Shown here one piece after another: positions 2,254 to 22,088 of a stretch of DNA of 61,035 nucleotides (position 1 is the first letter of the stretch; the number at the start of each line of letters is the position of its first letter). The DNA comes from a virus (lineage: Duplodnaviria > Caudoviricetes). Below the pieces are notes generated by a model that had not been told where the DNA came from, made no database searches, and saw only the letters and a list, made by a program, of their open reading frames with translations. The position numbers and the translations under genes were made by a program. The stretch lies in IMG/VR virus record IMGVR_UViG_3300025141_017123, positions 1-61,035 of that record; one strand, 5' to 3'.

Positions 2254-2347
2254 TATGATTCTTGATACCTATTTTGGTTTAAATATGTCACATATAATAT
2301 TTAATTGTAGAACTCAGACATTATGCTTTTAAAATTCAATGGGAAAG

Positions 2348-2857
2348 CTACTTACCAGTCCATGTATTGTCATTTTGGTACTGCCCAGAGCAAGCGCTGT
2401 TATATGCAAATTGGCCCGTAGACTTATCTCGACAGCGCCAAACTAAGTAATAGTTGCCATCATAAAACTGGTCCCATGCATAGCCAGAAGAATAGTTATT
2501 TGAACCGCCAGCTCCTGCAGCAGCAACAGCTAAAACAACGACACCTACCGCAACGACAGCAGCAACAACGCCTTGAGCTATTTCTTTTCTGTCTTGTACA
2601 GCTAATATCTCACATTTGTACTGAGTGAGTGTTCTATATTCAACTTCTCTGTTAAGTGCGTAGATATAGTTCGCTTCATCAGTATTCTCGGTGGTATAAC
2701 TTTTAGCGAGGATATCTTTATCATTAAGGTAGTTTCGACACACTTGAGCATCGGTTAATTCAGAGTCACCGGCAATGATGGCGCGTCTAGAGGCCGAACA
2801 GCCAGTAATAAAGCTATGTATCAGAAAGGATACGATAGTGTTTTTAATTGAAGTCAT
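2348..2857 (-). CDS. Hypothetical putative lipoprotein with Ala/Val/Gly-rich hydrophobic segment
   Basis: Lipobox-like ITGC, hydrophobic AVVAVGVVVLAVAAAG stretch. Confidence 0.55.
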   Translation of the reverse strand: MTSIKNTIVSFLIHSFITGCSASRRAIIAGDSELTDAQVCRNYLNDKDILAKSYTTENTDEANYIYALNREVEYRTLTQYKCEILAVQDRKEIAQGVVAAVVAVGVVVLAVAAAGAGGSNNYSSGYAWDQFYDGNYYLVWRCRDKSTGQFAYNSACSGQYQNDNTWTGK

Positions 2858-3054
2858 TAGTAAACTATTCCATGTTTAAAATAAGCTTTGACTAAGCTCA
2901 TAATTCCTTCGTCAAATATTAACAAACGAAGCCAGATTTTACTAATTGTTAATAACAGGTTTTTAATATTAAAGCATGCAACCTGCTTACATCAGCCCTG
3001 ATAAAACTATCATCTTTACAAAAAGAATCTTGGCTTAATTTAAACCTTAATTTA

Positions 3055-3074
3055 TACTGTATATACAAACAGTA
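3055..3074 (+). promoter_or_regulatory. LexA (SOS) box upstream of umuDC
   Basis: TACTGTATATACAAACAGTA = CTG-N10-CAG, 12 nt before the umuD ATG. Confidence 0.92.
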
Positions 3075-3086
3075 TTCGAGGTGTGT

Positions 3087-3503
3087 ATGTTCGTTATTCC
3101 AATTTTTATAGAAGCAGGTATTACCGGCTTTGAATCTCCCGCAACAGAGTATATAGAGCTAGGAATCTCTATTGACGAGCTAATTATTAAACATCCCAAC
3201 GCCACATTCATTGGGTTAGCGTCGGGCCAATCGATGCAAGATGTAGGTATATTCGATGGAGACTTACTTGTTGTTGATAGAGCTGAAGATGTAAGTTCAG
3301 GCGATGTAGTCGTTGCGAGTTACAATGGGTCGTTTGTTTGTAAAATAATAGATAAAACAAACCGCTTGCTAATCTCAGCATCCAAAAGCTACAAATCCGT
3401 TTATGTTTCACCTGAAGATGACTTCAAACTCGAGGGTGTAGTCACAACCAGTATCCGCTTACACAAAAACAAAATAGAGCTCAGTCGATGTTTGCCCTCG
3501 TAG
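3087..3503 (+). CDS. umuD: DNA polymerase V accessory subunit UmuD (S24 peptidase)
   Basis: GFESPA cleavage region, SGQSM catalytic Ser, VCK Lys; overlaps umuC. Confidence 0.92.
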   Translation: MFVIPIFIEAGITGFESPATEYIELGISIDELIIKHPNATFIGLASGQSMQDVGIFDGDLLVVDRAEDVSSGDVVVASYNGSFVCKIIDKTNRLLISASKSYKSVYVSPEDDFKLEGVVTTSIRLHKNKIELSRCLPS

Positions 3504-4747
3504 ATGCTGTCGCTTTTTACGCGAGTGCGGAGAAAGTATTTGACCCTTCGATTCGCTCTAAACCAGTTGTAGTACTTACAAATAACGATGGATGTATTTG
3601 CGCCATATGCCCTATCGCACGAAAGTTGAACATCCCCAAATTTCAGCCTTACTTCAAGATTAAAAACTATTTAGAACAGCACCATGTCGTGGTTCGCTCT
3701 TCTAATTATGAGCTTTACGCTGATTTAAGTGAAAAAATGATGACTGTTATAAATCGGTTTTGTGATGACCACTATGTATACAGTATCGACGAATCGTTCT
3801 TACGATTTACGGGGTTCACTAAAATCATCAATGACTGGGCTGACTATGGGCAAATAATACGTCGTGCAGTATGGCGAGAAACAGGGTTACCCGTTGGTGC
3901 TGGCTTTGGCACAACACCTACCCTAGCAAAAGCGGCCAACCATGCAGCCAAAAAACTATCAGGGTACAACGGTGTAGCCGTCATTAACGATGAAAAATCT
4001 CGTAAAGAAATACTGATGCGCATGGATGTCACTGATGTCTGGGGTATTGGCTCTCGTTTAGGAAAAAAACTTAAGTTAATGGCGATTAATACTGCCTGGG
4101 ACTTAGCTTGCCAAAACCCTAAAGCAATGAGGCGCATGTTCAGTGTTGTCGTAGAGAGAACTGTTAGCGAATTAAATGGTATTACCTGTTTAAGTTGGGA
4201 TGAAGTAAAGCAAGATAAGAAAGAAATATACTCAACTAGAAGTTTTGGTGAAAGAGTCACTGATTTAACAACATTAAAATCGGCTTTAGTAACACATGCC
4301 GCCATTGTTGGGCGAAAACTCAGAAGACAACAATCATTAACAAAGCGTGTAGTTATTTTTGCTGCCAGCTCGCCGCATGAAGATGAGCACTACAAAAAAT
4401 CACTTCTATATGAGTTTCCCATACCGACATCAGACACCAGCGTTATAGCTAAGGCTGTTTCTGCGGTTATTGATAAAATTTATAAACCGAATACGCGCTT
4501 TTATCGCTGCGGTATAGGAGCTATAGAATTAGAAAGTGAATCATTTCAACAAGCCGATATGTTCTCTGTGAGTGAGGATAAACCTAAAATGTTGGAATGC
4601 TTAGATGTAATAAATAAACGCTATGGTGTAGGAACTTTATCTATAGGTAGTGAAAAGCTAACAAAGTCATGGAACATGAAAAGGGCTTTTTTATCGCCCC
4701 ACTACACAACCCGCTGGTCAGACATTCCTATCATAGATTGTGATTGA
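3488..4747 (+). CDS. umuC: Y-family DNA polymerase V subunit UmuC
   Basis: MFALVD..FYAS, SSNYELY, YSIDE, C-terminal W.MKR..LSP.YTT.W. Confidence 0.95.
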   Translation: MFALVDAVAFYASAEKVFDPSIRSKPVVVLTNNDGCICAICPIARKLNIPKFQPYFKIKNYLEQHHVVVRSSNYELYADLSEKMMTVINRFCDDHYVYSIDESFLRFTGFTKIINDWADYGQIIRRAVWRETGLPVGAGFGTTPTLAKAANHAAKKLSGYNGVAVINDEKSRKEILMRMDVTDVWGIGSRLGKKLKLMAINTAWDLACQNPKAMRRMFSVVVERTVSELNGITCLSWDEVKQDKKEIYSTRSFGERVTDLTTLKSALVTHAAIVGRKLRRQQSLTKRVVIFAASSPHEDEHYKKSLLYEFPIPTSDTSVIAKAVSAVIDKIYKPNTRFYRCGIGAIELESESFQQADMFSVSEDKPKMLECLDVINKRYGVGTLSIGSEKLTKSWNMKRAFLSPHYTTRWSDIPIIDCD

Positions 4748-5086
4748 ATCAGTTAAGTTAATATTGAATATGTTCCATTCCGACCAATCAAAGCATGAAC
4801 ATTTGTAGTTAAGCTCGGTTGTGGCTTTTTCACAACTTTGAATTTTAAGTCTTTGTTACAAATTCATCTAGACTTGGACTAAAAGCATAATGAAAAGGGA
4901 TATTACTCTTATCACCATAAAGCAAACGCTTATACTCACTGGATTACCTTAAGTATAGGATCTCTTAGCAAACAAAGGTAAGACCGGCTCCTTAATCGTG
5001 CAGGTCATGTAATATGCACTCACACTCATATTCTCAGTAAGCAGCCATGCTATAATTCGAAAATATTTCAGTAAAAGGAAGTTACA

Positions 5087-7432
5087 ATGCTAGAAAGAAT
5101 ACAAAAAATAGAAAACGTCGGTAACTACAGTCGAGCCCTTGCTGGCGGCTTCCCTCTTGGTCGCGTGAGTGTAATCTATGGTGAAAATAGAAATGGTAAG
5201 AGCACTCTTTGCGATATTCTTTACTCATTATCGCTTAATGATCCTCAGCTAGTCCTTGATAGAAAATCAGTAGTTCAAGGTCATGAGCCAGATACTATCA
5301 ATCAACAAATCGAATTAAAGTTCTCCGATAGACAGCAAACCGTTAAGTTCAGAAATTCAGAATGGGACTCTCAACCACCTGAAGAATCAAATCTATATAT
5401 CTTTGACCACGGATTCATTCATCGAAATGTATTGGCTGGAACAAAGTACAGTCGTGAGAATTCAACTAACGTTTCAAGGTTTATCTTAGGTGAAAACATA
5501 GCGGCTTTTGATGACCTCGAAGTTCGTAATCAACAACTAAGAACTGATAGACAAACGTTAAACAGACATAAAACAGAATTGGAGGGTCACGAAATTGGTG
5601 ATTTTAAAGCGTTTGTTGAGTTACCAGTACCGACCAAAACGCTTGATGAGTTAGATGCTGACATTCGAGTATCAAAGCAGGCTCAAGAACAGCTCGCAAC
5701 TCAAATCACGAATACAACGCAAATCACTCAACGCTCGAATCTAAATGGCTTATTTAATGGTGTTTCTATTACCTCCACATCACAAGAAATCAACAATTGT
5801 TTAGCTCTTTCTATGGTCAACGTACATGACGCATCTAAGGCTATAGTTACTGAGCATAAGAACAAGGTTAACAACAAAGAATCATTTAATGGATGGGCTG
5901 CTAGTGGTATCGAACACTTAGATGAAGATTGTCCTTTCTGTGGGCAAGAATTAGGTGCTGACGCTCAAGAACTAATAGAGAGCTACAGAACTGCTTTTGA
6001 TGACGCTTTCCAAAATTTTGTAAGAAACACCAAAACAGAAGTAACCCGACTGAGAGCTAAAACGCTTATAGATGTTAGCCTTGAAAAATTAACAGAGAAG
6101 CATGATCAGAATGTCGCTACTTTAGAAACTTACTCCGAAGGTACTATCAACGACAAGTTACGGGAACTCGACCACGAAGCAATGTTAACTCAGCGTTTCG
6201 AATCAGTTACTGAAGCACTTCTAGCTCTAATTGATGAATCAGTTACAACTAACAATGCGATTGATACAGCATTATCAGATAAATATGATGCGCCTTACAA
6301 TGCTTTTAATTCAATTGATTTCGATGAGTTGCAATCAAATATAGATGCTTTTAATGGAGCTATTCAAAGTTATTCGGACGCTATTGCACCTTTGAATGCA
6401 ATGTTAAGCGAGTTTAAAAACGGTCAAAATGTAGCTGATTTAAGGGAAAAGAAACAGTTAGAAGCAGAAAATGAAGTTGGCATAGCTATTAGTCGTAAAC
6501 GATTAAATTTAGATGTTCTTTGTGTTCAGTATAATAATCTAAAAGCACAGATTGACATAGATAAAGCAAGTTACGATGCTGATAAAGAAGCCCTTGAACT
6601 GGCTCAAGAGGCGTTTTTGAATACGTATTTTGTAACTATCAACGACCTATTCAGACGTATTGGCTCAACTGACTTTGCTATATCTCGTAAGGTTAACCGT
6701 GGTGGGGCTAGAACCGTCTATGACCTTGAAGTTAAGTTTAAAGGTCAACTGATAAACAACTCTAAGCTTCATTGTTTGTTCAGTGAGTCAGACCGTCGAG
6801 CTTTGGCTCTTTGTATATTCTTAGCCAAAATACAACAACTTTCATATGAAGCTAAAGCGAAGGCTATCTTGGTTATGGATGATCCTGTTACAAGCTTTGA
6901 TAGTGAGCGTATTTCTAGCATTTTGCAAATACTGCATGCTATAGAGCCTAGTATTAAACAGATGATTATAACGACCCACTATAAGGGCATGGCATCTGCG
7001 GTTATGAAAAAATTCGTAGATGTAAATGCACTTAAAATCTATCAAGATGAAACAGGCTCAAAATTCGTTGCAACAACAAAGGCAGAGATGACGGCGACAC
7101 CTCACGATGAGCGTTATGCTGAAATCATGGCTTTTGTAGAGCGTAGAACTCAAGAGAACCAAATAGGAAAGCTTCGCCTATTTATTGAAGATGAAATGAG
7201 ACAGAGATATAAACTTCCACTATCTAACCTCAACCTTACTGTGAGAGATAAATTTAGTGACTGCATCAACGCTCTTCGGGATGGAAATTACATTGATGCT
7301 GACATAGCACACTCATTGGATGACTACCGAACGACACTTAACGGAACTGCTCACGAACTAGAAGAATGGTCACTTGAGGACTCACGAGGGTACGCTGAAG
7401 GTATGATGGAGTTCATTTATCAAAGATTATAA
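5087..7432 (+). CDS. RloC-like AAA_13/SMC-type ATPase with zinc hook and probable C-terminal HEPN nuclease
   Basis: Walker A GENRNGKST, coiled coil with CPFCGQ hook, signature FSESDRR, Walker B ILVMDDPVTSFD, TTH switch, C-terminal RTTLNGTAH. Confidence 0.75.
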   Translation: MLERIQKIENVGNYSRALAGGFPLGRVSVIYGENRNGKSTLCDILYSLSLNDPQLVLDRKSVVQGHEPDTINQQIELKFSDRQQTVKFRNSEWDSQPPEESNLYIFDHGFIHRNVLAGTKYSRENSTNVSRFILGENIAAFDDLEVRNQQLRTDRQTLNRHKTELEGHEIGDFKAFVELPVPTKTLDELDADIRVSKQAQEQLATQITNTTQITQRSNLNGLFNGVSITSTSQEINNCLALSMVNVHDASKAIVTEHKNKVNNKESFNGWAASGIEHLDEDCPFCGQELGADAQELIESYRTAFDDAFQNFVRNTKTEVTRLRAKTLIDVSLEKLTEKHDQNVATLETYSEGTINDKLRELDHEAMLTQRFESVTEALLALIDESVTTNNAIDTALSDKYDAPYNAFNSIDFDELQSNIDAFNGAIQSYSDAIAPLNAMLSEFKNGQNVADLREKKQLEAENEVGIAISRKRLNLDVLCVQYNNLKAQIDIDKASYDADKEALELAQEAFLNTYFVTINDLFRRIGSTDFAISRKVNRGGARTVYDLEVKFKGQLINNSKLHCLFSESDRRALALCIFLAKIQQLSYEAKAKAILVMDDPVTSFDSERISSILQILHAIEPSIKQMIITTHYKGMASAVMKKFVDVNALKIYQDETGSKFVATTKAEMTATPHDERYAEIMAFVERRTQENQIGKLRLFIEDEMRQRYKLPLSNLNLTVRDKFSDCINALRDGNYIDADIAHSLDDYRTTLNGTAHELEEWSLEDSRGYAEGMMEFIYQRL

Positions 7433-7933: not shown

Positions 7934-9289
7934 TTAGCCCCAAATGTTTCGAGAAATCAAAGTATACGGCTTCTGCTGATTGTCTATAGTTTTAGTTTCT
8001 GGATCATAGAAGTAGTGAGTGATTTCGTAATTTCTAAACTCATCTAATGATAAGGGTTTTTCGGCGAAAGGATTATGGTGAATTTGAAGCCCATCTAAAT
8101 GAGTTTCAAAGTGAATTTCATTACTTTTCATTTCCATCACTAGACCTTGAGATGGATGATACCAACTGGAACGAATTTCACGTTTAAGGTTGCTTTGAGT
8201 GATCGCTTTTCCAAGAGTAGCTGTAGTTGAGAAAATAACTGCACTAATATGTTTAAACTTATCCGTTGTGAAGAGCCCCAGTTCCAATGGAGTTTTGCCA
8301 TTTTTTATCGCTAGATTCACTTCAACTTCAGAAAACCCATTATTTTTATCTACACCCTGTGCATATAGAACTCGGATAATAGCCTCATTATTTTGGATGA
8401 AGAACAATGGCTGCTCATACGGTGCAACGGCTATTACGTAAGGGTTGGATTTAACATGATCGTGTTTTTCGTAGGTTTCGAAATATTTTTTACTTTTAAA
8501 GTCAATTGCGTTCAACAATCGTACACACGAAAAATTAAGGAACTCTTTATCCTCAAGTAGATTTGCCCCATATCCATCCCACTCTGGTATAGAATCATGA
8601 GCATGGTTAGCAGTAACCGCCTCAACGTTAATTAGGTTTCCGTTAAGCGTATTTAAGGTGAAATCAGGGCTAGGTTGAGTAAAATCGACCTCCATCTTCA
8701 AATCTTTAAAGCACTGGAAAAGATATAGTTCCCAAAAAGACGAGTTGAATGTTTCCTGAAACTGGCGATTAAATTTGTTGTCCCTGTCTTCAAAACCACT
8801 TGCCCAACGGTTGAGTACTTCTCTCACTGGCGCATACTCTTCGGAGAGTATATGTTTAAAATTCGGATTTAATTTCTTACTTTCAGCAACAATATCAAAT
8901 AATGCTAAAGGCTTCTTCGCTGTTCTATACTCAGAGCTCAAGAAATAGCGTCCAAACATATAATGTTTTAGCACGTATTCGACAATCGTGATTCTAACCA
9001 TTGCAGCGATTTCACGATCTTTTTTCTCAGCTATAAATGCAGTTACATCTAATAAATACTGCTGAGGACCTGTTGGTCCATCGACGTCTTCACAGCTATT
9101 TTCAAGAGCACCTTTGTAATCAGATTCATTGATATAAAACCTCTGTACTCGGTCAACTACAAATGCAGTCCCATGCTGCGCAGCATCAAGCTCTTCAAGA
9201 ATAAATTGCCATGCGACACTTTTGTTATTCTCTTTAAAATCAATTATTTCTATGATTTTCTGAACTGCCGCATTAATAAATTGTTGCAT
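7934..9289 (-). CDS. Two-domain protein with C-terminal PD-(D/E)XK-like nuclease domain (family often labelled 'glycosaminoglycan attachment protein')
   Basis: DRDNKF..FQETFNSSFWELYL, SPDF, VEAVT motifs; preceded by GTTAGCT core-like site at 9320. Confidence 0.6.
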   Translation of the reverse strand: MQQFINAAVQKIIEIIDFKENNKSVAWQFILEELDAAQHGTAFVVDRVQRFYINESDYKGALENSCEDVDGPTGPQQYLLDVTAFIAEKKDREIAAMVRITIVEYVLKHYMFGRYFLSSEYRTAKKPLALFDIVAESKKLNPNFKHILSEEYAPVREVLNRWASGFEDRDNKFNRQFQETFNSSFWELYLFQCFKDLKMEVDFTQPSPDFTLNTLNGNLINVEAVTANHAHDSIPEWDGYGANLLEDKEFLNFSCVRLLNAIDFKSKKYFETYEKHDHVKSNPYVIAVAPYEQPLFFIQNNEAIIRVLYAQGVDKNNGFSEVEVNLAIKNGKTPLELGLFTTDKFKHISAVIFSTTATLGKAITQSNLKREIRSSWYHPSQGLVMEMKSNEIHFETHLDGLQIHHNPFAEKPLSLDEFRNYEITHYFYDPETKTIDNQQKPYTLISRNIWG

Positions 9290-9520
9290 TGATTACCTTA
9301 CTTAAAATCCATCAGCTAACAACTTCTATACGACTCTGCGCCGCATTTAACGCCGATATAATACAGTCTTTTCAAAATTTAATCGATAGGTTAGTGACTG
9401 CAGTGAGAGGTTCGATCGCTTAGAGAAGCATAATTTCTAGATGTACTGTATTCGGATAACTTTTGGTAGGGCAAACGCATTCCAACAAAATATGAATGAG
9501 TATTTACGCTAGCTTTTTTT

Positions 9521-9559
9521 GGGGCAAAGGCGAGTTAAATACATAACCCGCCTCTGGAC
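9521..9559. repeat. REP-like hairpin; related arms at 7590-7605, 7836-7850, 15894-15909
   Basis: GGGGCAAAGGCGAGTTA-aataca-TAACCCGCCTCTGGAC; GGGGCAGAAACGAGTT recurs at 7590 and 15894. Confidence 0.55.
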
Positions 9560-9606
9560 AATTATGAGTTAGTGTCGACGGGCGGTTCTGTGCCATACAG
9601 CGGTCG

Positions 9607-9696
9607 TTAGCGCTTCGCTAAGCGGAAAATAATGGTTGGCTATAATCGCATAGCGATGGCCAACTGTTATTTTTCCGTTTAAGCAACTAGTTAGTT
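9607..9696 (-). repeat. attC site (integron cassette recombination site), R' degenerate
   Basis: R'' AACTAAC overlaps the stop of 9691-9969; long imperfect palindrome CGGAAAATAA.GTTGGC...GCCAAC.TTATTTTTCCG; R' reads GCT instead of GTT. Confidence 0.8.
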
Positions 9697-9969
9697 TTTG
9701 TCGCCTATAGCATTTACTTCAAAGAAACCGCCACATGGTCGAGTTCCATCTTCAATACCATTACAAAACAAACCTTTAGTTGAAAGGTTGTTTTCAATCA
9801 TTTTATTAATTACATCGTCTACACGTAAGCTTGGCTTGCTGCATAATTCTTTAGAGCAATATATAGGAGTATTTATATCAGAATAACTTCGTGATATGGG
9901 TGGTTCACTACTACCCATTTCGTCGAATTCAAAGATATAATTTTTAGTAATATTTTCTTGATTGGACAT
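9691..9969 (-). CDS. Gene-cassette hypothetical protein, Cys-rich
   Basis: ATG 9969; cassette core GTTAGTT at 9991 complementary to R'' AACTAAC. Confidence 0.7.
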   Translation of the reverse strand: MSNQENITKNYIFEFDEMGSSEPPISRSYSDINTPIYCSKELCSKPSLRVDDVINKMIENNLSTKGLFCNGIEDGTRPCGGFFEVNAIGDKN

Positions 9970-10253
9970 ATTCACCCTTTTGAAAACTAACAGCTTATTG
10001 AACACGGTTTTGGTGGTTTATAACACACCAAAAAGGCCTATATTACATACCCTGATAATTTCACCAATAATTATCATTGTAAACACGTAATTACAATAGC
10101 TAGGAATTAAGCTCGTTATTTTGCATCAAAACGACGGATAGTAATGTTATCGGGCAAGGTTAGGCTCCTACTCGAAATAAATTTAACTTTTCAGTGAACA
10201 GCCTAGCTTCGCAAAAGTACCAACCGCTGACATTAGCAACGCACTAAAAAAGC

Positions 10254-10724
10254 CTACGATTGCACCGTGAACCCACATTGAAGACATCGTTCGCCACCAT
10301 AGTTTTCATTGTAACTAAGCCCTAAACCACTGCCACATTCAGGGCAGAATTCTGATATATCTAGTGATGCCCATTCCCAAACGTCCGCATACTCTGGAAT
10401 ACCATCACTATCATGCCCTATCAGTTCACCAGCATTAGTTTGTTTGGCTATGTAGCTACAGTAACTGTGCACTTTTAGTAGTTCTAAAACTATCTCGTGA
10501 TTTATTTCGAACCACTCGCCAATAACGTTTACAGTGCTGTATTTCTGATGAAATTCTTTTTCTAGTTTCCGGTCTTTATCGCTGTTGATCCACCCCATAA
10601 GAGCTAATCTTCGGGAGTTGCCCGTTTGAAGAGTTTTAAGACGTTGAGTTGGGTTATTACTAATACCGATCTTAATTCTTTGGTTCACCAAGTCTTCATT
10701 TTCAATGATAAAGTAGAGTGCCAT
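10254..10724 (-). CDS. GIY-YIG-like (T5orf172/MUG113) domain protein with C-terminal zinc ribbon
   Basis: LYFI..IKIGIS.NP..RL..LQTGN..GEWF; CPEC..CLQC; RBS AAGGAG before ATG 10724; GTTAGGG core at 10745. Confidence 0.8.
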   Translation of the reverse strand: MALYFIIENEDLVNQRIKIGISNNPTQRLKTLQTGNSRRLALMGWINSDKDRKLEKEFHQKYSTVNVIGEWFEINHEIVLELLKVHSYCSYIAKQTNAGELIGHDSDGIPEYADVWEWASLDISEFCPECGSGLGLSYNENYGGERCLQCGFTVQS

Positions 10725-10885
10725 ATATCTCCTTGTAGCCCTAACGATTCTATAGAAAAACCCCAACAGCCGAATTCAATTAAATAATAAGCTCCTACAG
10801 CAAACCTAAGAGCTTTCTCACACTAGGTAATGCATTTGGAACTCATAAAAGCGGTCTATTTTCTTAAAAAAGAGTAATTCTACAG

Positions 10886-10945
10886 CCTCAACGCCAGCAG
10901 CAAGCGCGCCGCTTTTTGGCATCGCCTTGACTGCTTTTGTTAGCC
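10886..10945 (-). repeat. attC site (60 bp)
   Basis: R'' GGCTAAC overlapping the stop at 10940, R' GTTGAGG, internal palindrome. Confidence 0.85.
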
Positions 10946-11209
10946 TCTTGCTTCGCGCCCGGGCTCATCTTCGGCTACTCGGTAGCGCCAGTAACGATCC
11001 GGCTTTACCCAGACAACATTATGCTCAGTAATGTTCTTAAACTCAGCTAAGACTTCACGACCTAACACAAGATTACCGTCTGCATTTTCGCGCAAGAGCT
11101 TTTCGGCACCATCCTTTATAAGATGATCGACCGCATCGTCTTGGTAGATGCAGCCATCTTTTTCAATCTGAGATAGCATCCATGAAGTTGTTTGCTTAGC
11201 ATCTGTCAT
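10940..11209 (-). CDS. Small cassette protein (DUF6953-like)
   Basis: WML..I...GCIYQDD, NADGN.V, VVW..DRYWR motifs; second gene of a two-gene cassette. Confidence 0.65.
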   Translation of the reverse strand: MTDAKQTTSWMLSQIEKDGCIYQDDAVDHLIKDGAEKLLRENADGNLVLGREVLAEFKNITEHNVVWVKPDRYWRYRVAEDEPGREARG

Positions 11210-11211
11210 GA

Positions 11212-11397
11212 TTAAGACTTATCTACGGATTCTAGGGAGTCGTTAGGAAAATTACCCTGCTCAAGTTTCTTCCCCGCAAACCACTGGCAAATATAGTACG
11301 CAGCATGCTGTGACGGTACAGAACGAACAGTCATCTCTGGACCGCCAGACTTGATCTTTACGATATCTCCGACTTCGAAATTAGCGTTTTTTGTCAT
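11212..11397 (-). CDS. YodC/DUF2158 family small protein
   Basis: FEVGDIVKIKSGGPEMTV...CQWFAG...F..DSL. Confidence 0.85.
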   Translation of the reverse strand: MTKNANFEVGDIVKIKSGGPEMTVRSVPSQHAAYYICQWFAGKKLEQGNFPNDSLESVDKS

Positions 11398-11426
11398 GAA
11401 TACACCTCTTATTTTTTCAGTTTATT

Positions 11427-11481
11427 GGCTAACGCCGCGAACAGCTGCGGCTTTGTAGTGGATTGTTTTGCATTGTTATAC
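11427..11481 (-). repeat. attC site, internally deleted/degenerate
   Basis: R'' GTATAAC, R' GTTAGCC, only a partial internal palindrome. Confidence 0.65.
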
Positions 11482-11485
11482 GCGC

Positions 11486-11929
11486 CTACTGGTTTAAATA
11501 GGGGCTCATTTTGTTTTTTAGCTCTGTTAGCTGCTTGCCAAACCAAAAAAATGTTTCTTGTGAAATTTTAAACCCTTCAACAAACTCAGGGGTTCCTGAA
11601 ATCTCCTTTCCATGCTGTTTAAAGCCGGTAATCTTGAATGACTCCGAATGCATTAAGTCAAGAAGCTCGAAAATACTGGAATCTTCAGAAAATAGAAACC
11701 TGGATGCTTCTTTACTGGCAATAAAAGAACGGTGGGTTTCTTGGCTAACTTTCTCATCAACAAGCTCCTGATAGAAGCGGAGTGTGTCTGTGTATACAGA
11801 AAAGCGCTTATTATAAAGATCAAGATTTAACTTTCTTTTATTAATTGCCATTTGTTGATATGCGATATAAGCCAGAAATGCAGCCATTATCGCTGACGGA
11901 ATAAGCTCTATTAACTTTGAACAAATCAT
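11486..11929 (-). CDS. Cassette hypothetical protein with N-terminal TM helix
   Basis: AFLAYIAYQQ..INKRKL.LDLY.KRF; cassette cores GTTATAC/GTATAAC complementary. Confidence 0.75.
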   Translation of the reverse strand: MICSKLIELIPSAIMAAFLAYIAYQQMAINKRKLNLDLYNKRFSVYTDTLRFYQELVDEKVSQETHRSFIASKEASRFLFSEDSSIFELLDLMHSESFKITGFKQHGKEISGTPEFVEGFKISQETFFWFGKQLTELKNKMSPYLNQ

Positions 11930-11950
11930 TTATTGCGACTCACTAATTTC

Positions 11951-12037
11951 GTATAACGCCTCACATCACCGGACACAAAAAGCCCAGCGAGGAACGAGCG
12001 GCGTTTTTTGTGATCCGAGTGCATGTGATTGTTAGCC
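11951..12037 (-). repeat. attC site (87 bp)
   Basis: R'' GGCTAAC, R' GTTATAC, stems CACAT..CGGA.CACAAAAA / TTTTTGTG.TCCG..ATGTG. Confidence 0.9.
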
Positions 12038-12043
12038 AATTCT

Positions 12044-13276
12044 TTATTTATCTGACGGGATATCATATAGCTGTGTAGTAACAATTATTTCTTTTCCAGG
12101 CTCTGACTCCTTAATAAGAGTGTAGCGAGAGTCTCCGTCGGGATGATGAAAAACAGTCTTACGATGTTCCGGTAACGACTCCATTGCTTCATGCATCTTT
12201 TGCCTTACAGCATTAGAGTCTTTTGTTCGGTTAAATACCATCAGGGCGCATTTTGAGTCGCGCCATGTCAAATAGCCAAGAAGTTGGCTAACGGCGTCAT
12301 TAAATACTTTTTGGCCCCGCCAGAATTTACACTCAGCAATGAATACATTCTTATTTTCTTCTCGTATGAGAATGTCAGTTTTTCCTGACGCATTGAATGT
12401 TTCCCCAGTTGCCCCGCCTTCATAATGGCCATTTAACTGCAAAAGAAAATGATCGCGGATTGATTCTTCATCAAGTGAAGCAAATGACGCGGGATTACGC
12501 TCAATAACTAACGACATACTGCGAATGATTTCCAATATGTGCAGGTATTCTTTTTCATCGAGCACAGGTTCCGGCTGATAAGAGCCCGTCTCCACCGTAG
12601 GTTTTTTCGTTGGTTTCGTTCGTCGTTTCGCGGGGATAGTGAAAGTCGGTGATGCATCTGCTCTCTTTACAGGAATACCTAACGCGGCAACAGCACCAGT
12701 GGTTGCCTGAGCCAGTTCTCTTTTCCTTTTTAGTGCCTGCTTCACCGTGTTTGGAACAGAGCCATTATGATTCGATACATCATTTTTAAGGTAACCGATG
12801 GCATCTTCTAAAGACTTTATATTTCGATTGATATCTGCCTTAAGCTTGTCCGGATTCGCTGAATCATCTGGAAAGCTTACGCTCATTATAATCTCACCAC
12901 CTCTTACTTCTATGTCTGGGTAACCACCCGAACTCCATGTAGATGCGCGCACTCTCCAAAGCATAGGATCACCTTCAAATGGAATGGCTATATCTATCTT
13001 TGTTCCTCTTACAACAGCCCGCTCTCCTAGAAAGACCGCTCTACTGAAATCATGACTCACGTCAATCTGGGTACCAGATTGGCTTTTTATATACTGCTGA
13101 TCTGAATGAAGAACTATAGGCTCAACTAAGGCCTTATAAATATAATGTTCTTCAAGCTCTGCTTCTGATGCTTTCAAAACATATTCATTGCCCAGCGCCT
13201 TAATCTCATTGGTCACTGAATCAACGATGTTTCTGAAAGTGGCAAAAGTATCTCCCTCTCTAAACGGGTACATCAT
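12044..13276 (-). CDS. Cassette protein with C-terminal PD-(D/E)XK restriction-endonuclease-like domain
   Basis: EESIRD, GKTDILI, FIAECKFW motifs; cassette cores GTTAGCCAA/TTGGCTAAC complementary. Confidence 0.7.
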   Translation of the reverse strand: MMYPFREGDTFATFRNIVDSVTNEIKALGNEYVLKASEAELEEHYIYKALVEPIVLHSDQQYIKSQSGTQIDVSHDFSRAVFLGERAVVRGTKIDIAIPFEGDPMLWRVRASTWSSGGYPDIEVRGGEIIMSVSFPDDSANPDKLKADINRNIKSLEDAIGYLKNDVSNHNGSVPNTVKQALKRKRELAQATTGAVAALGIPVKRADASPTFTIPAKRRTKPTKKPTVETGSYQPEPVLDEKEYLHILEIIRSMSLVIERNPASFASLDEESIRDHFLLQLNGHYEGGATGETFNASGKTDILIREENKNVFIAECKFWRGQKVFNDAVSQLLGYLTWRDSKCALMVFNRTKDSNAVRQKMHEAMESLPEHRKTVFHHPDGDSRYTLIKESEPGKEIIVTTQLYDIPSDK

Positions 13277-13292
13277 TGTTCCTCTTTCTTTT

Positions 13293-13351
13293 GGCTAACA
13301 TTTTAGTATTTATGCGACACGCTGTTTGTGTTGCATAATCACTTGTTGGAC
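13293..13351 (-). repeat. attC-like site closing the recombinase/transposase unit
   Basis: R'' GTCCAAC, stem TTATGCGACAC/GTGTTGCATAA, R' GTTAGCC; spacer lengths atypical. Confidence 0.6.
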
Positions 13352-13614
13352 TGAGCCGCTACCTGCTCGGTGTGTCAGAGTTGGTGTTGTTTATGCTATG
13401 GGAATTTGCTTTTTAGAGGCTCTCACTTTCCTCGCTAATTTAATCAGCTTAGCGAGTGTTATGTAAGCTTTCCCTGCATTGCTCAGCGCTTATTATGTAT
13501 TCATTACACCTAAATTTCCCTTAATAAGCAATTATATTTTTTACACGTACAGAGGCCGCTAGCCTGAACAATTAAGCAGGTTAACTTATTGATTTGATGC
13601 AGCAAGCAAGGCTG

Positions 13615-14706
13615 CTAACTCGTTCGCGCTACTTTGTTTGTCGCCTCATCTAAATTCATCACACCAATAAGTCGTAAAGTACCCGTCTTGCATGACTGGC
13701 AAGGCCAATGGGGTATTAATCGTTCTTGCTCTACCTTCGGCTTCACCGCTTTGCATGGGGTTGCTGATACTTGAGCCTTTATTAACCCTAACTTTCGCTT
13801 GCGACACGCATTAGCTAAAAAGCCATAGTGGCGAATGCGCATAAACCCTTTCGGCAATACATGTTGTAAGTAACGATGTAAAAATTCGTCACAACTCAGT
13901 GTCATGACCTTATCGCGGTTATTATCTGCATAATCGTGGTATTTAAAGCTCACTGACTGCTCATTCGCTGACACTAATCGCGATTCTGACATCACGCCTT
14001 TTCGTGTATAACGAGCAAGGTAACTAACTAGCTTTTCACTGTACGTTAAACAGGCTTTGCTATACACGCACCATTTTGTTGGCGTGTTTATCTTCACGAA
14101 TGAACCATCTGATTCGTTTAACGCCGCCAGCATTTTTCCTCTAAACACTGTTGATAACGCTTTTACGGGGTATAAGTAGCCTTTTTCTATTTCATGCCAG
14201 TGCGTTTTTTCAAGTGCACCTGCGGGTATCAAACAATGCAAGTGGATATGCTGACTTAAGTTTTGCCCCCACGTATGCAGTACGCTTGTCATGCCTAACT
14301 GGCCATGCCTCTTTCGTTTCGCAAATTTGCTCAGCGTTTGCCATGCGGCTTTAAATAAACACTGGTACAACGCGCTTGGGTTATAGTGCGCAATGATATT
14401 CAACTCATGAGGGAGCGTAAAAACAAGGTGGAAATACCGACACGGTAATAAATCCTCTTGCTGTCTTTGCACCCACTTAGCCATAGCCATGCCTTGGCAA
14501 CGCGGACAATGACGGTCTCGACAACTACATCCAATCTTTTGCGACTCACCACAGTTATCACATTGCCATGCTTGGTAACCAAGCTGACCTGTTCTGCATG
14601 ATTGAAGGTGCTGACAGACACGCAGTTGTTGATAGCTCATCGTATGATGCTGTCGATAATTCTCAAGATTTGAGTTTAAAATATCAGCGAGATGCAAAGC
14701 GCTCAC
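13615..14706 (-). CDS. IS91-family rolling-circle (Y2) transposase
   Basis: Zn-binding CRT..CDNC..CRDRHCPRC, HLVFTLP, HUH motif HIHLH, YLARY, RIRHYG. Confidence 0.95.
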   Translation of the reverse strand: MSALHLADILNSNLENYRQHHTMSYQQLRVCQHLQSCRTGQLGYQAWQCDNCGESQKIGCSCRDRHCPRCQGMAMAKWVQRQQEDLLPCRYFHLVFTLPHELNIIAHYNPSALYQCLFKAAWQTLSKFAKRKRHGQLGMTSVLHTWGQNLSQHIHLHCLIPAGALEKTHWHEIEKGYLYPVKALSTVFRGKMLAALNESDGSFVKINTPTKWCVYSKACLTYSEKLVSYLARYTRKGVMSESRLVSANEQSVSFKYHDYADNNRDKVMTLSCDEFLHRYLQHVLPKGFMRIRHYGFLANACRKRKLGLIKAQVSATPCKAVKPKVEQERLIPHWPCQSCKTGTLRLIGVMNLDEATNKVARTS

Positions 14707-15539
14707 TGTTTACCCCAACTCGCAAGCAAATCAATGCCGCCATGCCCTAATTCAGGTAACCAGTGTAAGTAACTTTGTGTCGTTTTAATATCACTGTGAC
14801 CAAGCTGATGTTGCAATTGATGAAGTAGCATACCTGATTCAAGTTGGTGTGTTGCATAAGCATGGCGTAAAGAATGTGGATTACAGTGCTTTAAGCCACA
14901 TGCTTGTGCATGTTTTCTCAATGCCTTTCTGAAGCTTGAGGGTGATATGGGTTTATCCATTAACAACCGCGAGTAAAACATCCAGCCCGTTGGATGATAC
15001 ATTTTCCAATAACAACGTAATTGATTCAGCACACTGTCTGATACAACCACATACCGTGACTTATCCCCTTTACCCTGTTCAATTAAAATGGTTTTACGCT
15101 GTCCATCTATGTTTTGCACTTTAATGTGCAACAGCTCGCCAATACGTAAACCACACCCGTAACACACCACTATTAACGTTTTTAGTCGCATATCATCCGT
15201 GCAGCTCTCTATCAGCCGCCGCATATCATCACGTGATAAATAGGTGGGTGCGCGCGACTTCACTTTTGGCAATGCGACATCTAAGTTCAATGGCCGGTGT
15301 AAAATATTCTTAAACAAAAACCAAATGCTGTTTATCTGTACTTTTTGGCTTGCTCTAGACAGTTTACGAATAGCGGGATCGTTAAAAAAGGCGTTAAGTT
15401 CGTCATCAGTAATCGAATCGAGTGGTCTATTAAAATAATGACTGAGTTTTAGTAAATGTTCACAGTAGCTTTTACAGGTACTTTGCGAATAACCACGATA
15501 GGTTATTTCAGTTTTGACTTGTTCAATGAGTGTATTCAT
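14703..15539 (-). CDS. Tyrosine recombinase (phage-integrase family, N-terminal SAM-like domain)
   Basis: GLRIGE, GKGDK, HSLRH, LGH, TQSY; no IntI-specific insertion. Confidence 0.92.
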   Translation of the reverse strand: MNTLIEQVKTEITYRGYSQSTCKSYCEHLLKLSHYFNRPLDSITDDELNAFFNDPAIRKLSRASQKVQINSIWFLFKNILHRPLNLDVALPKVKSRAPTYLSRDDMRRLIESCTDDMRLKTLIVVCYGCGLRIGELLHIKVQNIDGQRKTILIEQGKGDKSRYVVVSDSVLNQLRCYWKMYHPTGWMFYSRLLMDKPISPSSFRKALRKHAQACGLKHCNPHSLRHAYATHQLESGMLLHQLQHQLGHSDIKTTQSYLHWLPELGHGGIDLLASWGKQ

Positions 15540-15761
15540 GACTTACCTCCAAGTTATGGGATAACCCCAAGGTAAGTGTGGTTCAAATGGTAAGAATAGG
15601 ATCTCCGCGTAGCGGCTTAGTTCAACATTTTAATAGTGCGCTCATCGCGCATATTTCTGCCGACTAAACACTCATTTTTCTGCATGATATAGTTTTAACT
15701 AATAACCTAATGTATTACTATCACTAATTTTTCTAGAATTTTAAGTAAAGTTTAATAGAGC

Positions 15762-15866
15762 AATAATGCGCGCGTCGCTCATTTTCATGAATATATGCGC
15801 AAAGAACAGTTTAACCAATCAATTAACGACGATATTTAGCCACTTTCAATGACCGGTTATCGGTCA
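15762..15866. repeat. ~105-bp inverted repeat, left copy (partner 17629-17732)
   Basis: Reverse complement aligns with 17629-17732 (GGCTAAATATCG..TTGGTTAAACTG..CATTATT), about 80% identity by eye. Confidence 0.8.
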
Positions 15867-15966
15867 TTTGCGACGCTCAACTAAACTCATTTTGGGGCAG
15901 AAACGAGTTATACCGGAATAGCTTCTTTTAGCACTCAGGCGTACTTAGGCAAAGAGCGATGACCAG

Positions 15967-17472: not shown

Positions 17473-17628
17473 GTCAATGTATCTCCTAGGTGAAAAACGT
17501 TTGAAAAATTTTATCTATTAACAAGAAAGGTTACCATACTTACTTTTTATATAACGTATTTTTAAAAATTCTAATATAAATTGAATAAGTGACCGAGCAC
17601 AATTGACACTTTTGCGAAGTTCGGCTGT

Positions 17629-17732
17629 GAGCGAAAACCGGTCATTGAGATTGGCTAAATATCGTAGTTTGTTAATTGGTTAAACTGCTCTTTACGTATA
17701 TATTTATGGAAATAAGTGATTCGCACATTATT
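17629..17732. repeat. ~105-bp inverted repeat, right copy
   Basis: Inverted homologue of 15762-15866. Confidence 0.8.
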
Positions 17733-17749: not shown

Positions 17750-18502
17750 ATGGTGCCATTATCGAAGAGTTTATTTATGTTACTTGTCCTTTTACTAAGT
17801 GCATGTTCGACGAAACCATTTGATGGCCCTAATTCATCGATCAAGAAATTTACTTACTACGATGAACAAGATGTGAATGACATGTATAGCGCGTTGTTTT
17901 CTGATCATAAAATATTGGGGAAAATTAATAATAATGATGTCATAAGTGACAAGTCACTATATTCAATAGCTGAAAAATATAAAGCAGATATTATTTTAGC
18001 TAATATGAGATTATTAAGTGTTGGGGCTCCTCGAATAGCGGGGCAAGTTAATGTAAACGGTAGTTTTTCTATTTACGAAACCGTAGGAGAAAGTAACTGG
18101 TCAAACCAATATCTATTTTTACAACAACCCAATAAAAAAAAGTATTTTTGGGAAAAAGAGTTACCTAAAAATATACAGTTAGCAACAAGAACTGAATGGG
18201 TTCAATGCGCCACTGTCGAATGTGAAAGAACATTCGGTTTTATTGATGTTGTTAACTTTGAAACAACGCAATATATGATTGTAAAGGGAAATAAAATACC
18301 TTTTGCAAAGTTTGAGTTAAGCTCAGGAATTGGAGTTGTATTGGATATAGTTGATGGCATAACACCTCATGTAGCTACATTTGAAAAACAAACCCACGGT
18401 TTTAAAATAAAAAGCAAAGAAAGCAATAGATTATTTATTCCTCTAAAGTTATACAATAGAATATCAAAAGAAGTAAATAAACCTGACATTACGATATATT
18501 AA
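17750..18502 (+). CDS. Putative lipoprotein (relic gene cassette)
   Basis: Lipobox LSAC; followed by decayed attC. Confidence 0.75.
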   Translation: MVPLSKSLFMLLVLLLSACSTKPFDGPNSSIKKFTYYDEQDVNDMYSALFSDHKILGKINNNDVISDKSLYSIAEKYKADIILANMRLLSVGAPRIAGQVNVNGSFSIYETVGESNWSNQYLFLQQPNKKKYFWEKELPKNIQLATRTEWVQCATVECERTFGFIDVVNFETTQYMIVKGNKIPFAKFELSSGIGVVLDIVDGITPHVATFEKQTHGFKIKSKESNRLFIPLKLYNRISKEVNKPDITIY

Positions 18503-18772: not shown

Positions 18773-19551
18773 ATGCTTACTTTTAACGAAGTTCTCTCAT
18801 TAAAGAGTGATATATTTAGATAAATATCAGGTGAAATATGTGAGACATAAAGATAGTCGAAAAGAATATCGTGAATTAATAAAAGATCGTGGAGAATTAT
18901 TAAAATATCAAGCAGAGCAAGCTAATAATGTATTTGAAAAATGTGACTATATCGCGTCATTTGTAGGAATAGAGCAATCTAAAGCTGTATTTATCGGAAT
19001 GTTTAAAGTTGATGGAGCTAGTTAAATATGTTCTAAATGAGGTGGAGGGATTTGAAGACTTTAAAGAGCGTTTAGTTATTGATTGGGGAAGAAGCGCAAT
19101 AAAATGGCATCAGTGGGTTAAGGCCAATCCTAAAAATGTCGCTGAAATTTTACCTAAAGGCTACCTTGGTGAATTCCCAGGTCTTTTAAACTTTACGCTA
19201 GATTATAGTGAGCTTAGAAAATTAGGAGAAAATTTAAGTGCAAATCGTGAGTGGTATCTACAATTATCTTCGATAAATGGTATTTATCTAATATTGGATA
19301 AATTGACAGGAGATCAATATATCGGTTCTGCGTATGGTAAAAAAGGTATTTGGCAACGCTGGAGTGAGTACTCTAAGACTGGACACGGTGGCTATACATT
19401 ACTCAAAGAGCTGTGTTTAATTGACAATCAATATTATAAAAACTTCCAATTCACAATTTTACAATCTTTACCTAGTAACCTTTCAGACTCCTTAAGCTTT
19501 CTCTATCAAAGCCCTCTAGTATCTATCATTATGTATTACCTCCAAAAGTAA
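18773..19551 (+). pseudogene. GIY-YIG nuclease pseudogene (two frameshifts, probable 3' truncation)
   Basis: ATG 18773 with RBS stops after 16 codons; fragments 18807-19025 and 19009-19551 continue the family; GIYLILD..QYIGSAYG. Confidence 0.8.
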
Positions 19552-20945: not shown

Positions 20946-22088
20946 TTAAACTTTTTCGGCAGCTACAATTGTATTAAATGTTGGGCCTAGCTCTACAGTG
21001 ATCATAAAACCTTGATACGATATTTTTACTTGATTGCCTATATAAGCAAATGTATTTGGTTTTTGAACAGCGTTCATTAGTTCGTGAACTTGTTCAATTG
21101 CTAGCTGGCCAGTTAAGAACTTTTCAATTTGAGCACTGCTGATAGTAACAGCGCTACTATATATAGGTGCGTTTTTACGTGATAGCTCGTTTAGTAAATT
21201 TACAGGCAAGTGCCCTAACGTAAATTGCTGGGTATCTGGTACCGACTTTTTAAGCGCTAACTTTGCTGCATGTAAGTTTACCTGCTTTATATAGTACTGC
21301 TGAGATTTTAAAACTGCTTCGTTAAATTGTGGTACCGCTAGCTTTTGAATGTCAGTTGATATAGTCATAACTGATTTTCCCGCTGCAATGTCTGCGCCTA
21401 GCCATGCTTTACCAGGATTATAATCCCAACCCAAATCAATGCCTGGTAACTTACTCAGTTCTTCACCTGTTGATGGGTCTACAAATTTAAATGACTCAGT
21501 AAACTTTTTAACTGATTCTGGTTTAGTTACTGATAATCCCATGCGTGCAATATCACGCGCATTAAGTGATACCACCTTGCACCTGCAGTTATAACCATTC
21601 GGCGGATAATGCGTATCCCAAAACGAATGATCCACTGCCAGTAAAATGTAATTCCACTTACCGTGATCAGGTCTTACGCGGCTATCACCTGCAGTTAAGT
21701 ATAATAAATAAGGTCTGCGCTCTTTTAAACGCTCTTGTTGTTGCCAGCGTCCAGCTGCACGCGCAGTGTTTTTGTTGTTTTGATAAATAACTTTTGTACG
21801 CCAACCCCGTTTGCCATTGTATGACCAACCGTGATCATCAACTATTTTGTCAAAGCGTTTTCTAAAGTCCGATATAGTCTCGCCGTCACTTATCGCTTTA
21901 TCTACTGCTTTATATAGCTCGTTTATAATTTCGATTTGTGTTGCACCGGCAACGGTAAATGCTTTGGCGTGAATTAAGCCCTGTAAGTCTTTATATGACT
22001 CACTGGTAAGCTTAATTTTATCTTTGAAATGAGAAATGGCTTCCTCGAACTTAACAAGGTCGCCATATTGTGGAGCTAGTAAGGCCAT
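20946..22088 (-). CDS. Mu gpF-like minor head/head morphogenesis protein
   Basis: AFTVAG, YLLY.TAGDSRVRPDH, PPNGYNCRC, GWDYNPG. Confidence 0.9.
   Translation of the reverse strand: MALLAPQYGDLVKFEEAISHFKDKIKLTSESYKDLQGLIHAKAFTVAGATQIEIINELYKAVDKAISDGETISDFRKRFDKIVDDHGWSYNGKRGWRTKVIYQNNKNTARAAGRWQQQERLKERRPYLLYLTAGDSRVRPDHGKWNYILLAVDHSFWDTHYPPNGYNCRCKVVSLNARDIARMGLSVTKPESVKKFTESFKFVDPSTGEELSKLPGIDLGWDYNPGKAWLGADIAAGKSVMTISTDIQKLAVPQFNEAVLKSQQYYIKQVNLHAAKLALKKSVPDTQQFTLGHLPVNLLNELSRKNAPIYSSAVTISSAQIEKFLTGQLAIEQVHELMNAVQKPNTFAYIGNQVKISYQGFMITVELGPTFNTIVAAEKV

Follow-up and report, generated by a model that had tools for sequence, protein, structure and literature searches.

The viral record IMGVR_UViG_3300025141_017123 (Duplodnaviria; Caudoviricetes; record class provirus), analysed as a single stretch of 61,035 nucleotides that is here called the window, carries on its minus strand a 2.33-kb mobile element that combines a transposase of the IS91 insertion sequence (IS) family, a tyrosine recombinase, and ends that resemble those of an integron gene cassette. 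Comparison with its relatives gives good support to the view that this member of the IS91 family moves by itself, has cassette-like ends, and homes to GTT cores, those of attI and attC sites in particular. In its fuller form, which we hold at somewhat better than even odds (a probability of about 0.55), this reading takes the element as an autonomous insertion sequence of the recombinase-bearing IS91 subgroup whose termini imitate a gene cassette, and which is copied out by its HUH transposase and joined to its target as a folded junction without the host integron integrase IntI. The steps differ in strength: it is likely that the transposase copies the element out by rolling-circle replication, starting at the right end; covariation among homologous sequences supports a pairing of both ends within the displaced bottom strand; and insertion by the IntI-like recombinase is plausible. 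A unit of this kind had been proposed in an earlier inspection of the same DNA (the original prediction); the element and its immediate surroundings comprise the following parts.

15626..13297, minus strand: whole IS91-family element, from the GTTGAAC left end to the GTT right junction; 2.33 kb
15626-15609, minus strand: left end and left terminal repeat, GTTGAACTAAGCCGCTAC; its partner is 13362-13345
15539-14703, minus strand: int, tyrosine recombinase of 278 aa (PF00589, PF13495)
14706-13615, minus strand: tnpA, IS91-family Y2 HUH transposase of 363 aa (PF04986, PF14319)
13614-13296, minus strand: conserved non-coding 3' region, also present alone, as 3'-only pieces, in many genomes
13407-13296, minus strand: terminal block of 112 nt, beginning with AAATTCCCATAG and kept in Pseudoalteromonas, Vibrio and Shewanella
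13407-13396, minus strand: oriIS-like word AAATTCCCATAG, located in the sequence
13362-13345, minus strand: right subterminal repeat GTAGCGGCTCAGTCCAAC, including the R''-like box GTCCAAC at 13351-13345
13338-13310, minus strand: hairpin with 11-nt arms (13338-13328 and 13320-13310) and a 7-nt loop, from covariation and predicted folds
13309-13297, minus strand: A-rich 10-nt spacer and GTT crossover core, at the right junctions of all copies
13299-13293, minus strand: GTTAGCC (R'), located in the sequence
15867-15628, minus strand: attI-like module with two GC hairpins, in the left flank without an adjacent intI
13298-11951, minus strand: next cassette, starting with TTAGCC, with an open reading frame at 13276-12044 and a canonical attC at ~12037-11951

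Junctions and Target Sites

Relatives were compared at 16 Pseudoalteromonas genome loci and in 34 records from plasmids or chromids, of which 5 reached a cover of 80% or more; across the genus, at least 72 of 140 Pseudoalteromonas genomes held relatives, a lower bound with two candidates scored per genome. Twenty-eight loci were fetched, 27 of them distinct (L062 duplicates L019). Homology between these loci and the window begins at 15627/15626 and stops at 13296; the inserted DNA comes to ~2327 bp because the GTT/TGTT core is common to the element and its target. The left start TGTTGAAC and the identical 18-nt word occur in the window and in 28/28 fetched loci, and the left repeat is invariant in 28 Pseudoalteromonas loci and one base off in a Vibrio relative (L024). 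The right junction reads ...ACTAAA-N-N-GTTA in 32/32 rows, with immediate divergence beyond it. Truncated and solo copies (36 rows) end with GTTA in 33 cases and with ATTA in 3, and ~89 of the ~118 places in the genus listing stop at the exact right end (query position 2330-2332), whatever their start. In the lineage of G021 and G095 the base 5' of GTT differs between the two ends, so that the core common to both is GTT. The GTTGAAC start that had been proposed for the minus-strand unit is present at 15626-15620, and the expectation that homologs always join their surroundings at a GTT core was borne out: the core stands at both junctions in every copy, no copy was inserted elsewhere, and none was found to end at the AATTCC motif without the hairpin. 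The right neighbor is nearly always a different sequence, with a ribosome site and a start codon 15-30 nt on, as in a cassette.

Three pairs of empty and occupied sites were recovered. The first is a conserved 118-aa gene of the CxxCxxCC family (ykgJ-like) next to cysZ, which is occupied on chromosome 1 of genome G011 (L064) and intact in three genomes (L067-69); the second is a type-1 attI, empty in G112 (L086) and occupied in pPBSW1 (L023); the third is a type-2 attI, empty in G007 (L087) and occupied in L089. In all three pairs the empty site has a single TGTT and the occupied one has TGTT on either flank of the element, followed by A, with no other gain or loss; the insertion is precise, and its orientation is the same throughout. 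The target in these pairs is GTTA, and GTTC was found once (in Thiodictyon). An Rfam scan of the empty ykgJ-like site returned no RNA family, the site lying within a protein gene, and a plasmid search with window positions 9300-13295 gave one weak match and no empty site for the window's own copy. The preferred targets are attI and attC cores, and GTT inside ordinary genes is also used.

The context is that of an integron: in pPBSW1 an intact intI lies 300 nt from the element, which holds the first cassette position there; it is also the first cassette beside intI in L005, L063, and L083, and intI remnants adjoin it in L084 and L085. IntI scored above the cut-off in 106/140 Pseudoalteromonas genomes. 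Neither an IntI nor a second copy of the element was found within the window, which holds canonical attC sites downstream of the element (e.g., ~12037-11951) and the attI-like module (~240 nt, 15628-15867) on its left. The same module lies to the left of the element in nine more loci (L002, L003, L019, L020, L022, L059-L061, and Vibrio L024), in whose fetched flanks no intI was seen; over its 3' 167 nt the module shows homology with the spacer between intI and attI in pPBSW1. A second type of left flank contains a GGAC...GTCC hairpin and represents the attI that belongs to a different intI lineage. Public sequencing runs (24 listed, all of them assembled contigs, and four compared) add an observation on the module: its 3' end (window 15608-15693) was 3 to 25 times deeper than the element body in three of the four metagenome contig runs (X1, X2, X15), and metagenome contigs join it exactly at 15624 to various other sequences; the greater depth and the varied joins indicate that the module is commoner than the element.

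Terminal Structure and Predicted Folding

The 18-nt inverted repeat that had been noted between the ends (15626-15609 and 13362-13345) matches at 16/18 positions, and a repeat search gives the pair as 19 nt at 89%. Over 11 kb of the window this search returned 44 inverted pairs, several of them longer than the terminal pair; since the terminal repeat is thus unexceptional within the window, the case for its reality is made by comparison with other copies. In a relative on a Thiodictyon plasmid, whose Int is 38% identical, the left end and the right repeat each differ from Pseudoalteromonas at two positions, and these changes compensate each other. The Thiodictyon ends keep the box, the 5-nt and 9-nt spacers, and GTT around a hairpin of wholly different sequence, and the Int-transposase pair with its overlapping frames is retained from Pseudoalteromonas to Thiodictyon. 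This relative is the second cassette of an integron (L095) and is present in three identical 2530-bp copies, two of them outside the integron at CCT-GTT-AGA and CCT-GTT-CGA; the latter target looks, by eye, like an IS4-type transposase gene.

Within the right end, the GTCCAAC box pairs with GTTGAAC at 6/7 positions, and the attC-like span 13351-13293 measures 59 nt. The original prediction had described a 59-nt attC-like site shared with the start of the next cassette; GTCCAAC, the hairpin, and GTTAGCC are all present, yet the site is the element's own conserved right end, to which the next cassette contributes only the TTA after the G of the core. The oriIS-like word AAATTCCCATAG, likewise part of that proposal, does lie inside the unit (13407-13396). 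An attC scan of the window by box pair and fold returned 0 hits at a first setting and 142 and 135 unspecific hits at a second; only the 59-nt site and the attC at ~12037-11951 stood out.

Covariation of the hairpin, which had been named as a check, was found in alignment A1 (21 right-end sequences; mean column identity 90%): 6 of the 11 pairs change on both sides, 0/500 shuffles reach the observed score, and pairing amounts to 88.6%, with 19-51% in slid controls. One hairpin position is unpaired in 17/21 sequences; the window has an A.C mismatch there, with a G.T pair as its counterpart on the opposite strand, and the two imperfections of the outer stem behave likewise. With the two ends joined as in a circle, the bottom strand is predicted to fold into one long stem with a 4-nt bulge and an inner hairpin (-25.9 kcal/mol, z -10.3, vs. 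-19.5 kcal/mol for the top strand). In 4/4 lineages the bottom strand gives the more stable predicted fold at the junction (-25.9 vs. -19.5, -49.8 vs. -47.8, -22.9 vs. -13.6, and -14.7 vs. -12.7 kcal/mol). These data mark the terminal structure as an old and functional one.

The 3' end of the element also occurs by itself: its last 110-330 nt stand alone between cassette-like genes, with no adjacent int or transposase, in the Shewanella sp. ANA-3 plasmid (L094 3508-3616, a solo copy of the terminal block) and at many Pseudoalteromonas loci (L046-L058). These solo 3' pieces could be decayed copies or non-autonomous derivatives.

Recombinase and Transposase

The proposed pairing of an integrase with a Y2 transposase of the IS91 family is confirmed by profile matches to both proteins; tnpA starts at GTG and overlaps the int stop by 4 nt. 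The transposase matched the Pfam profiles PF04986 at 1.3e-49 and PF14319 at 4.1e-29, scored 396 bits on NF033538 (cut-off 125), and has HLH and YLARY motifs visible in its translation. Int matched PF00589 at 7e-37, and PF13495 as well; its blocks LRIGEL, GKGDKSR, HSLRHAYATH, LGHSD, and QSYLH line up with the catalytic blocks of IntI4 and XerA, including the C-terminal tyrosine. The two products are annotated by PGAP in relatives as 'tyrosine-type recombinase/integrase' beside 'IS91 family transposase'.

Among solved structures in the PDB, Int was closest to IntI4 (2a3v, 1.8e-35), followed by XerA, XerC-like, and XerD proteins. Its score on the IntI profile TIGR02249 was 168 bits, below the cut-off of 265; only profile positions 1-177 and 237-303 were matched, leaving 178-236 unmatched, and IntI4 residues 176-243 align with only 27 Int residues. 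This gap, taken together with the best match to IntI4, indicates that the recombinase of the element is, judged by alignment, IntI-like minus the IntI-specific insert. The original description as a non-IntI recombinase holds with respect to the TIGR02249 cut-off and the lack of the insert, but the protein is related to IntI, with IntI4 as its best solved match. The IntI-specific insert holds the extrahelical bases of attC, a role that agrees with the position of the element's unpaired bases, which in predicted folds lie on the arm opposite to that of the neighboring canonical attC.

Multiple Copies and Carried Flanking DNA

Genome G011 contains five copies of the element on three replicons at 99.1-100% identity, and G021 contains at least four at 99.4-100%. 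The sole IntI match of G011 (all 19 candidates scored) is split at the codon for the catalytic tyrosine by a ~155-bp insertion with inverted ends. Together with the insertions outside integrons, this pattern is suggestive of independence from IntI. The ~155-bp insertion itself is found not only in G011 (L082) but also in L086 (G112) and L087 (G007), with a like stop pattern in G023, G102, and W05; it spans at least three species and two intI alleles, 68% and 98% identical to the IntI of pPBSW1.

Two copies have brought along DNA from elsewhere. L063, at an attI, and L088, at an attI-like module, carry on their left sides 84 and 79 nt of the CxxCxxCC gene, DNA that in the chromosomal copy L064 flanks the element on its left; L063 and L064 agree without a difference over 2416 bp; their right ends are exact, and their left junctions are without GTT. 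Such a combination, in which the right end stays constant and the left end varies and includes neighboring DNA, is characteristic of rolling-circle movement as in IS91 and ISCR elements. The idea that the element moves its neighbors is thus borne out for left-flank DNA (79-84 nt directly, and probably ~240 nt in the attI-like module), while movement of whole cassettes was not observed; the claim of an autonomous cassette-like unit agrees with its presence in multiple copies, in arrays, at attI, and at GTT outside integrons. As a separate observation, L088 (G011 C2) is 2436 nt long, vs. 2327 nt, with ~109 nt extra inside the copy. A 4.1-kb block, seen on the Vibrio harveyi plasmid p345-185 (L024 ~1556-5680) and on 11 Vibrio plasmids like it, moves whole between backbones; it contains the module, int, the transposase, the attC-like end, and an annotated arr cassette with its attC, on a plasmid without intI.

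Proposed Mechanism and Alternative Explanations

A transposition cycle can be sketched as follows. The Y2 HUH transposase would nick the right end and start rolling-circle copy-out toward the left end, as in the outline of the published IS91 model, with its ori, its ter, a single-stranded circle, and read-through of the terminus (PMC5714925). The displaced strand would be the bottom strand, the better folder of the two; in it, the left end would pair with the right subterminal repeat, so that an attC-like stem is rebuilt around the junction. The IntI-like recombinase, or the transposase itself, would then join the folded junction to a GTT core, in a reaction resembling attC x attI and without need of the host IntI.

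Several points weigh against this scheme and are best considered together. The data do not separate the contribution of Int from that of the transposase. IS91 proper has no recombinase, and its target GTTC/CTTG resembles the GTT(A/C) found here. The predicted folds place the 4-nt bulge of the bottom strand on its 5' arm and the extra bases of the neighboring canonical attC (12040-11948) on the 3' arm, which argues that the site is not a standard IntI substrate. The extended repeat has uncompensated changes in many Pseudoalteromonas copies of the 21-sequence alignment and is not retained in the Vibrio lineage, where only the 7-bp boxes pair; the original suggestion that the repeat would extend the attC stem in an excised circle agrees with the predicted long stem of the bottom strand, but does not hold for Vibrio. 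The left junctions of L063 and L088 are imprecise, with ~45 and ~23 nt of attI lost, and could have been made by other recombination. The ~155-bp insertion also sits in a different intI allele and may thus spread by recombination, so that its age relative to the IS burst in G011 is uncertain. The left junctions of the 36 truncated copies share no GTT or other motif and are therefore not taken to prove premature termination; in these old copies, ordinary decay may account for the left ends. Finally, a joint between right and left end was not seen in the four assembled-contig runs, a result that is uninformative either way, as such contigs cannot show rare circles.

The main rival is a serious one, though we give it less than even odds: classic IS91 transposition only, in which the Y2 transposase performs both copy-out and insertion at GTT(A/C), Int is an accessory (for example in multimer resolution or cassette recombination), and the attC-like look is the ori/ter build of this subgroup, matching integron cores by chance. 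The IS91-family transposase is intact; the constant right end, the variable left end, and the carried flank fit the outlined IS91/ISCR model (PMC5714925); the targets outside integrons include CCT-GTT-CGA, that is, GTTC; and the polarity of the bulge is unlike that of canonical attC. Yet an accessory Int does not sit easily with its retention beside the transposase, in overlapping frames, from Pseudoalteromonas to Thiodictyon, or with an integron integrase as its nearest solved relative; nor would a chance resemblance readily account for ends that reproduce the R'' and R' boxes and the crossover between G and TT of IntI substrates, or for the strong bias toward the first position at attI (L023, L005, L063, and L083, with intI remnants at L084 and L085).

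The element could also be read as a miniature integron platform, on which Int and the 3' site capture cassettes downstream while the IS91 transposase moves the platform; we consider this improbable. On the right, a different cassette begins in nearly every case, its ribosome site and start codon lying no more than ~15-30 nt away; the cassette TTATATGCTC..., which lies behind the element in L063, stands behind canonical attCs in two further genomes; and the intI-less Vibrio plasmids have an arr cassette, with an attC of its own, after the element. However, near-identical copies within one genome have different right neighbors, as expected if the element moves to new GTT sites and not if cassettes arrive at it; the empty attI sites already carry their first cassette; and the Vibrio block moves as a 4.1-kb unit that ends outside the element.

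Least tenable is a passive cassette that arose when a gene pair of IS91 type was captured along with an attC, and that the host IntI alone now moves: its junctions between G and TT, its location in arrays and at attI, the IntI above cut-off in 106/140 Pseudoalteromonas genomes, and the phrase 'a new gene cassette structure' that a 2022 account applies to ISShvi3 beside an attC (PMC9229058) would all suit such a cassette, but a purely IntI-driven cassette is unlikely in view of an end architecture maintained, through compensatory changes, at an Int identity of 38%, near-identical copies that number 5, at least 4, and 3 in single genomes or replicons, insertions in a housekeeping gene and (by eye) in an apparent transposase gene, a carried left flank that starts at a junction without GTT, the burst in G011 with its sole intI interrupted, and a bulge polarity opposite to that of the neighboring attC.

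Gene Neighborhood in the Window

The cassette directly after the element (12044-13276, minus strand) encodes a match to PDC-S54 (1e-135), a candidate anti-phage defence system, and further matches to candidate defence models were obtained at 7934-9289 (minus strand; PD-T7-5), 5087-7432 (plus strand; PDC-S06), and 19009-19551 (plus strand; UzuA). With these matches around the element, the array looks like a cassette-format defence island beside a prophage. A phage structural gene look begins at ~20.9 kb (20946-61035), with a Mu F-like protein at 20946-22088, and the left part of the window includes genes for an ImpB/UmuC-like polymerase (3488-4747) and an endonuclease I (1519-2253); the cassette array may be part either of the prophage or of the flanking host DNA.

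Two kinds of repeated sequence accompany the array. An inverted partial copy of the attI-like module (105 nt, 17628-17732, plus strand; counterpart 15762-15866, 83% complementary) lies directly upstream of the open reading frame 17750-18502 on the other strand, as if it were a leader or promoter. The motif TAACTC-N5-TG(C/T)CC... occurs at three sites on the minus strand (15891-15910, 9518-9537, and 9552-9571), with 0.17 expected; these sites bracket the module, the element, and five cassettes, and they resemble the 3' half of the canonical attC of the genus. A sigma-54 promoter was considered for a repeated TGGCAC-like motif and dropped, as its spacing, compared by eye with the consensus, did not fit.

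Implications for Integron Biology

Integrons have, to our knowledge, been thought to depend on IntI for every cassette movement. A cassette-like element that homes to attI and attC, multiplies itself, and takes adjoining DNA along would offer a route, independent of IntI, by which cassette arrays and orphan attI sites are reshuffled and spread, including phage-defence arrays such as the one in the window. It would also be a tractable system for the cooperation of a tyrosine recombinase with an HUH nuclease on single-stranded DNA, and it gives a reason not to annotate such units as ordinary cassettes or as plain IS91 copies. More tentatively, and with the odds against it, IS91 elements with an Int may in general be self-mobilising cassettes that follow a second, IntI-independent route of folded single-strand recombination, in which the HUH enzyme makes a single-stranded circle and an insert-less IntI-like recombinase joins the rebuilt stem to GTT. 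If this were true, such elements could seed, rearrange, and export pieces of cassette arrays; the attI fragments that they carry may explain attI-like modules without intI, including that of the window; and a possible evolutionary link would run from rolling-circle transposons to the integron system.

Comparison With Known Mobile Elements

A literature search, with most subscription journals and ISfinder/TnPedia outside its scope, found no published role for the recombinase of the int-bearing IS91 subgroup, nor a description of the element's end structure, target rule, empty sites, carried flanks, or IntI-like recombinase. Besides ISShvi3, other named IS91-family members in ISfinder carry an integrase. 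ISShvi3, an IS91 member with an upstream integrase gene, has a gene pair identical in kind to that of the window and adjoins an attC in a Shewanella integron (PMC9229058); the single sentence that this paper devotes to it covers neither end structure and target analysis nor empty sites and mechanism.

With IS91 and ISCR elements in general, the element shares a Y2 HUH transposase with an N-terminal zinc domain, the absence of conventional inverted repeats at the tips and of an ordinary target duplication, and, as far as the outlined model describes it, a fixed origin end 3' of the transposase gene with read-through at the other end that carries adjacent DNA. Unlike them, it has an overlapping gene for an IntI-like recombinase, an attC-like right end (box, hairpin, spacer, and GTT) with which the left end pairs, and a GTT target core that mostly reads GTTA, attI and attC being clearly preferred. 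With integron cassettes it has in common GTT at both junctions, R''- and R'-like boxes, an imperfect hairpin, a bottom strand that folds better, and insertion at attI in cassette orientation. In contrast to cassettes, which usually consist of one promoterless open reading frame moved by IntI, it has two genes with an upstream region of their own, occurs in multiple copies and in ordinary genes, places its bulge on the opposite arm, and encodes its own recombinase without the IntI insert.

Other mobile elements are also specialised on integron sites, among them the IS1111-attC group and the group IIC-attC introns, both mentioned in the literature (PMC9229058, PMC11187229); these use a DEDD transposase with a guide RNA, or are retro-elements, they interrupt attC instead of joining between G and TT, and they are not cassette-shaped. 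A further parallel is GIsul2, for which the abstract reports a tyrosine integrase that mobilises a CR2-sul2 unit with an ISCR (IS91-like) element (PMC9376610); there, however, the integrase belongs to a genomic island and not to the IS, and the abstract mentions no attC-like ends, whereas in the element of the window the IntI-like recombinase, the IS91-family transposase, and the cassette-like termini are parts of one mobile unit.

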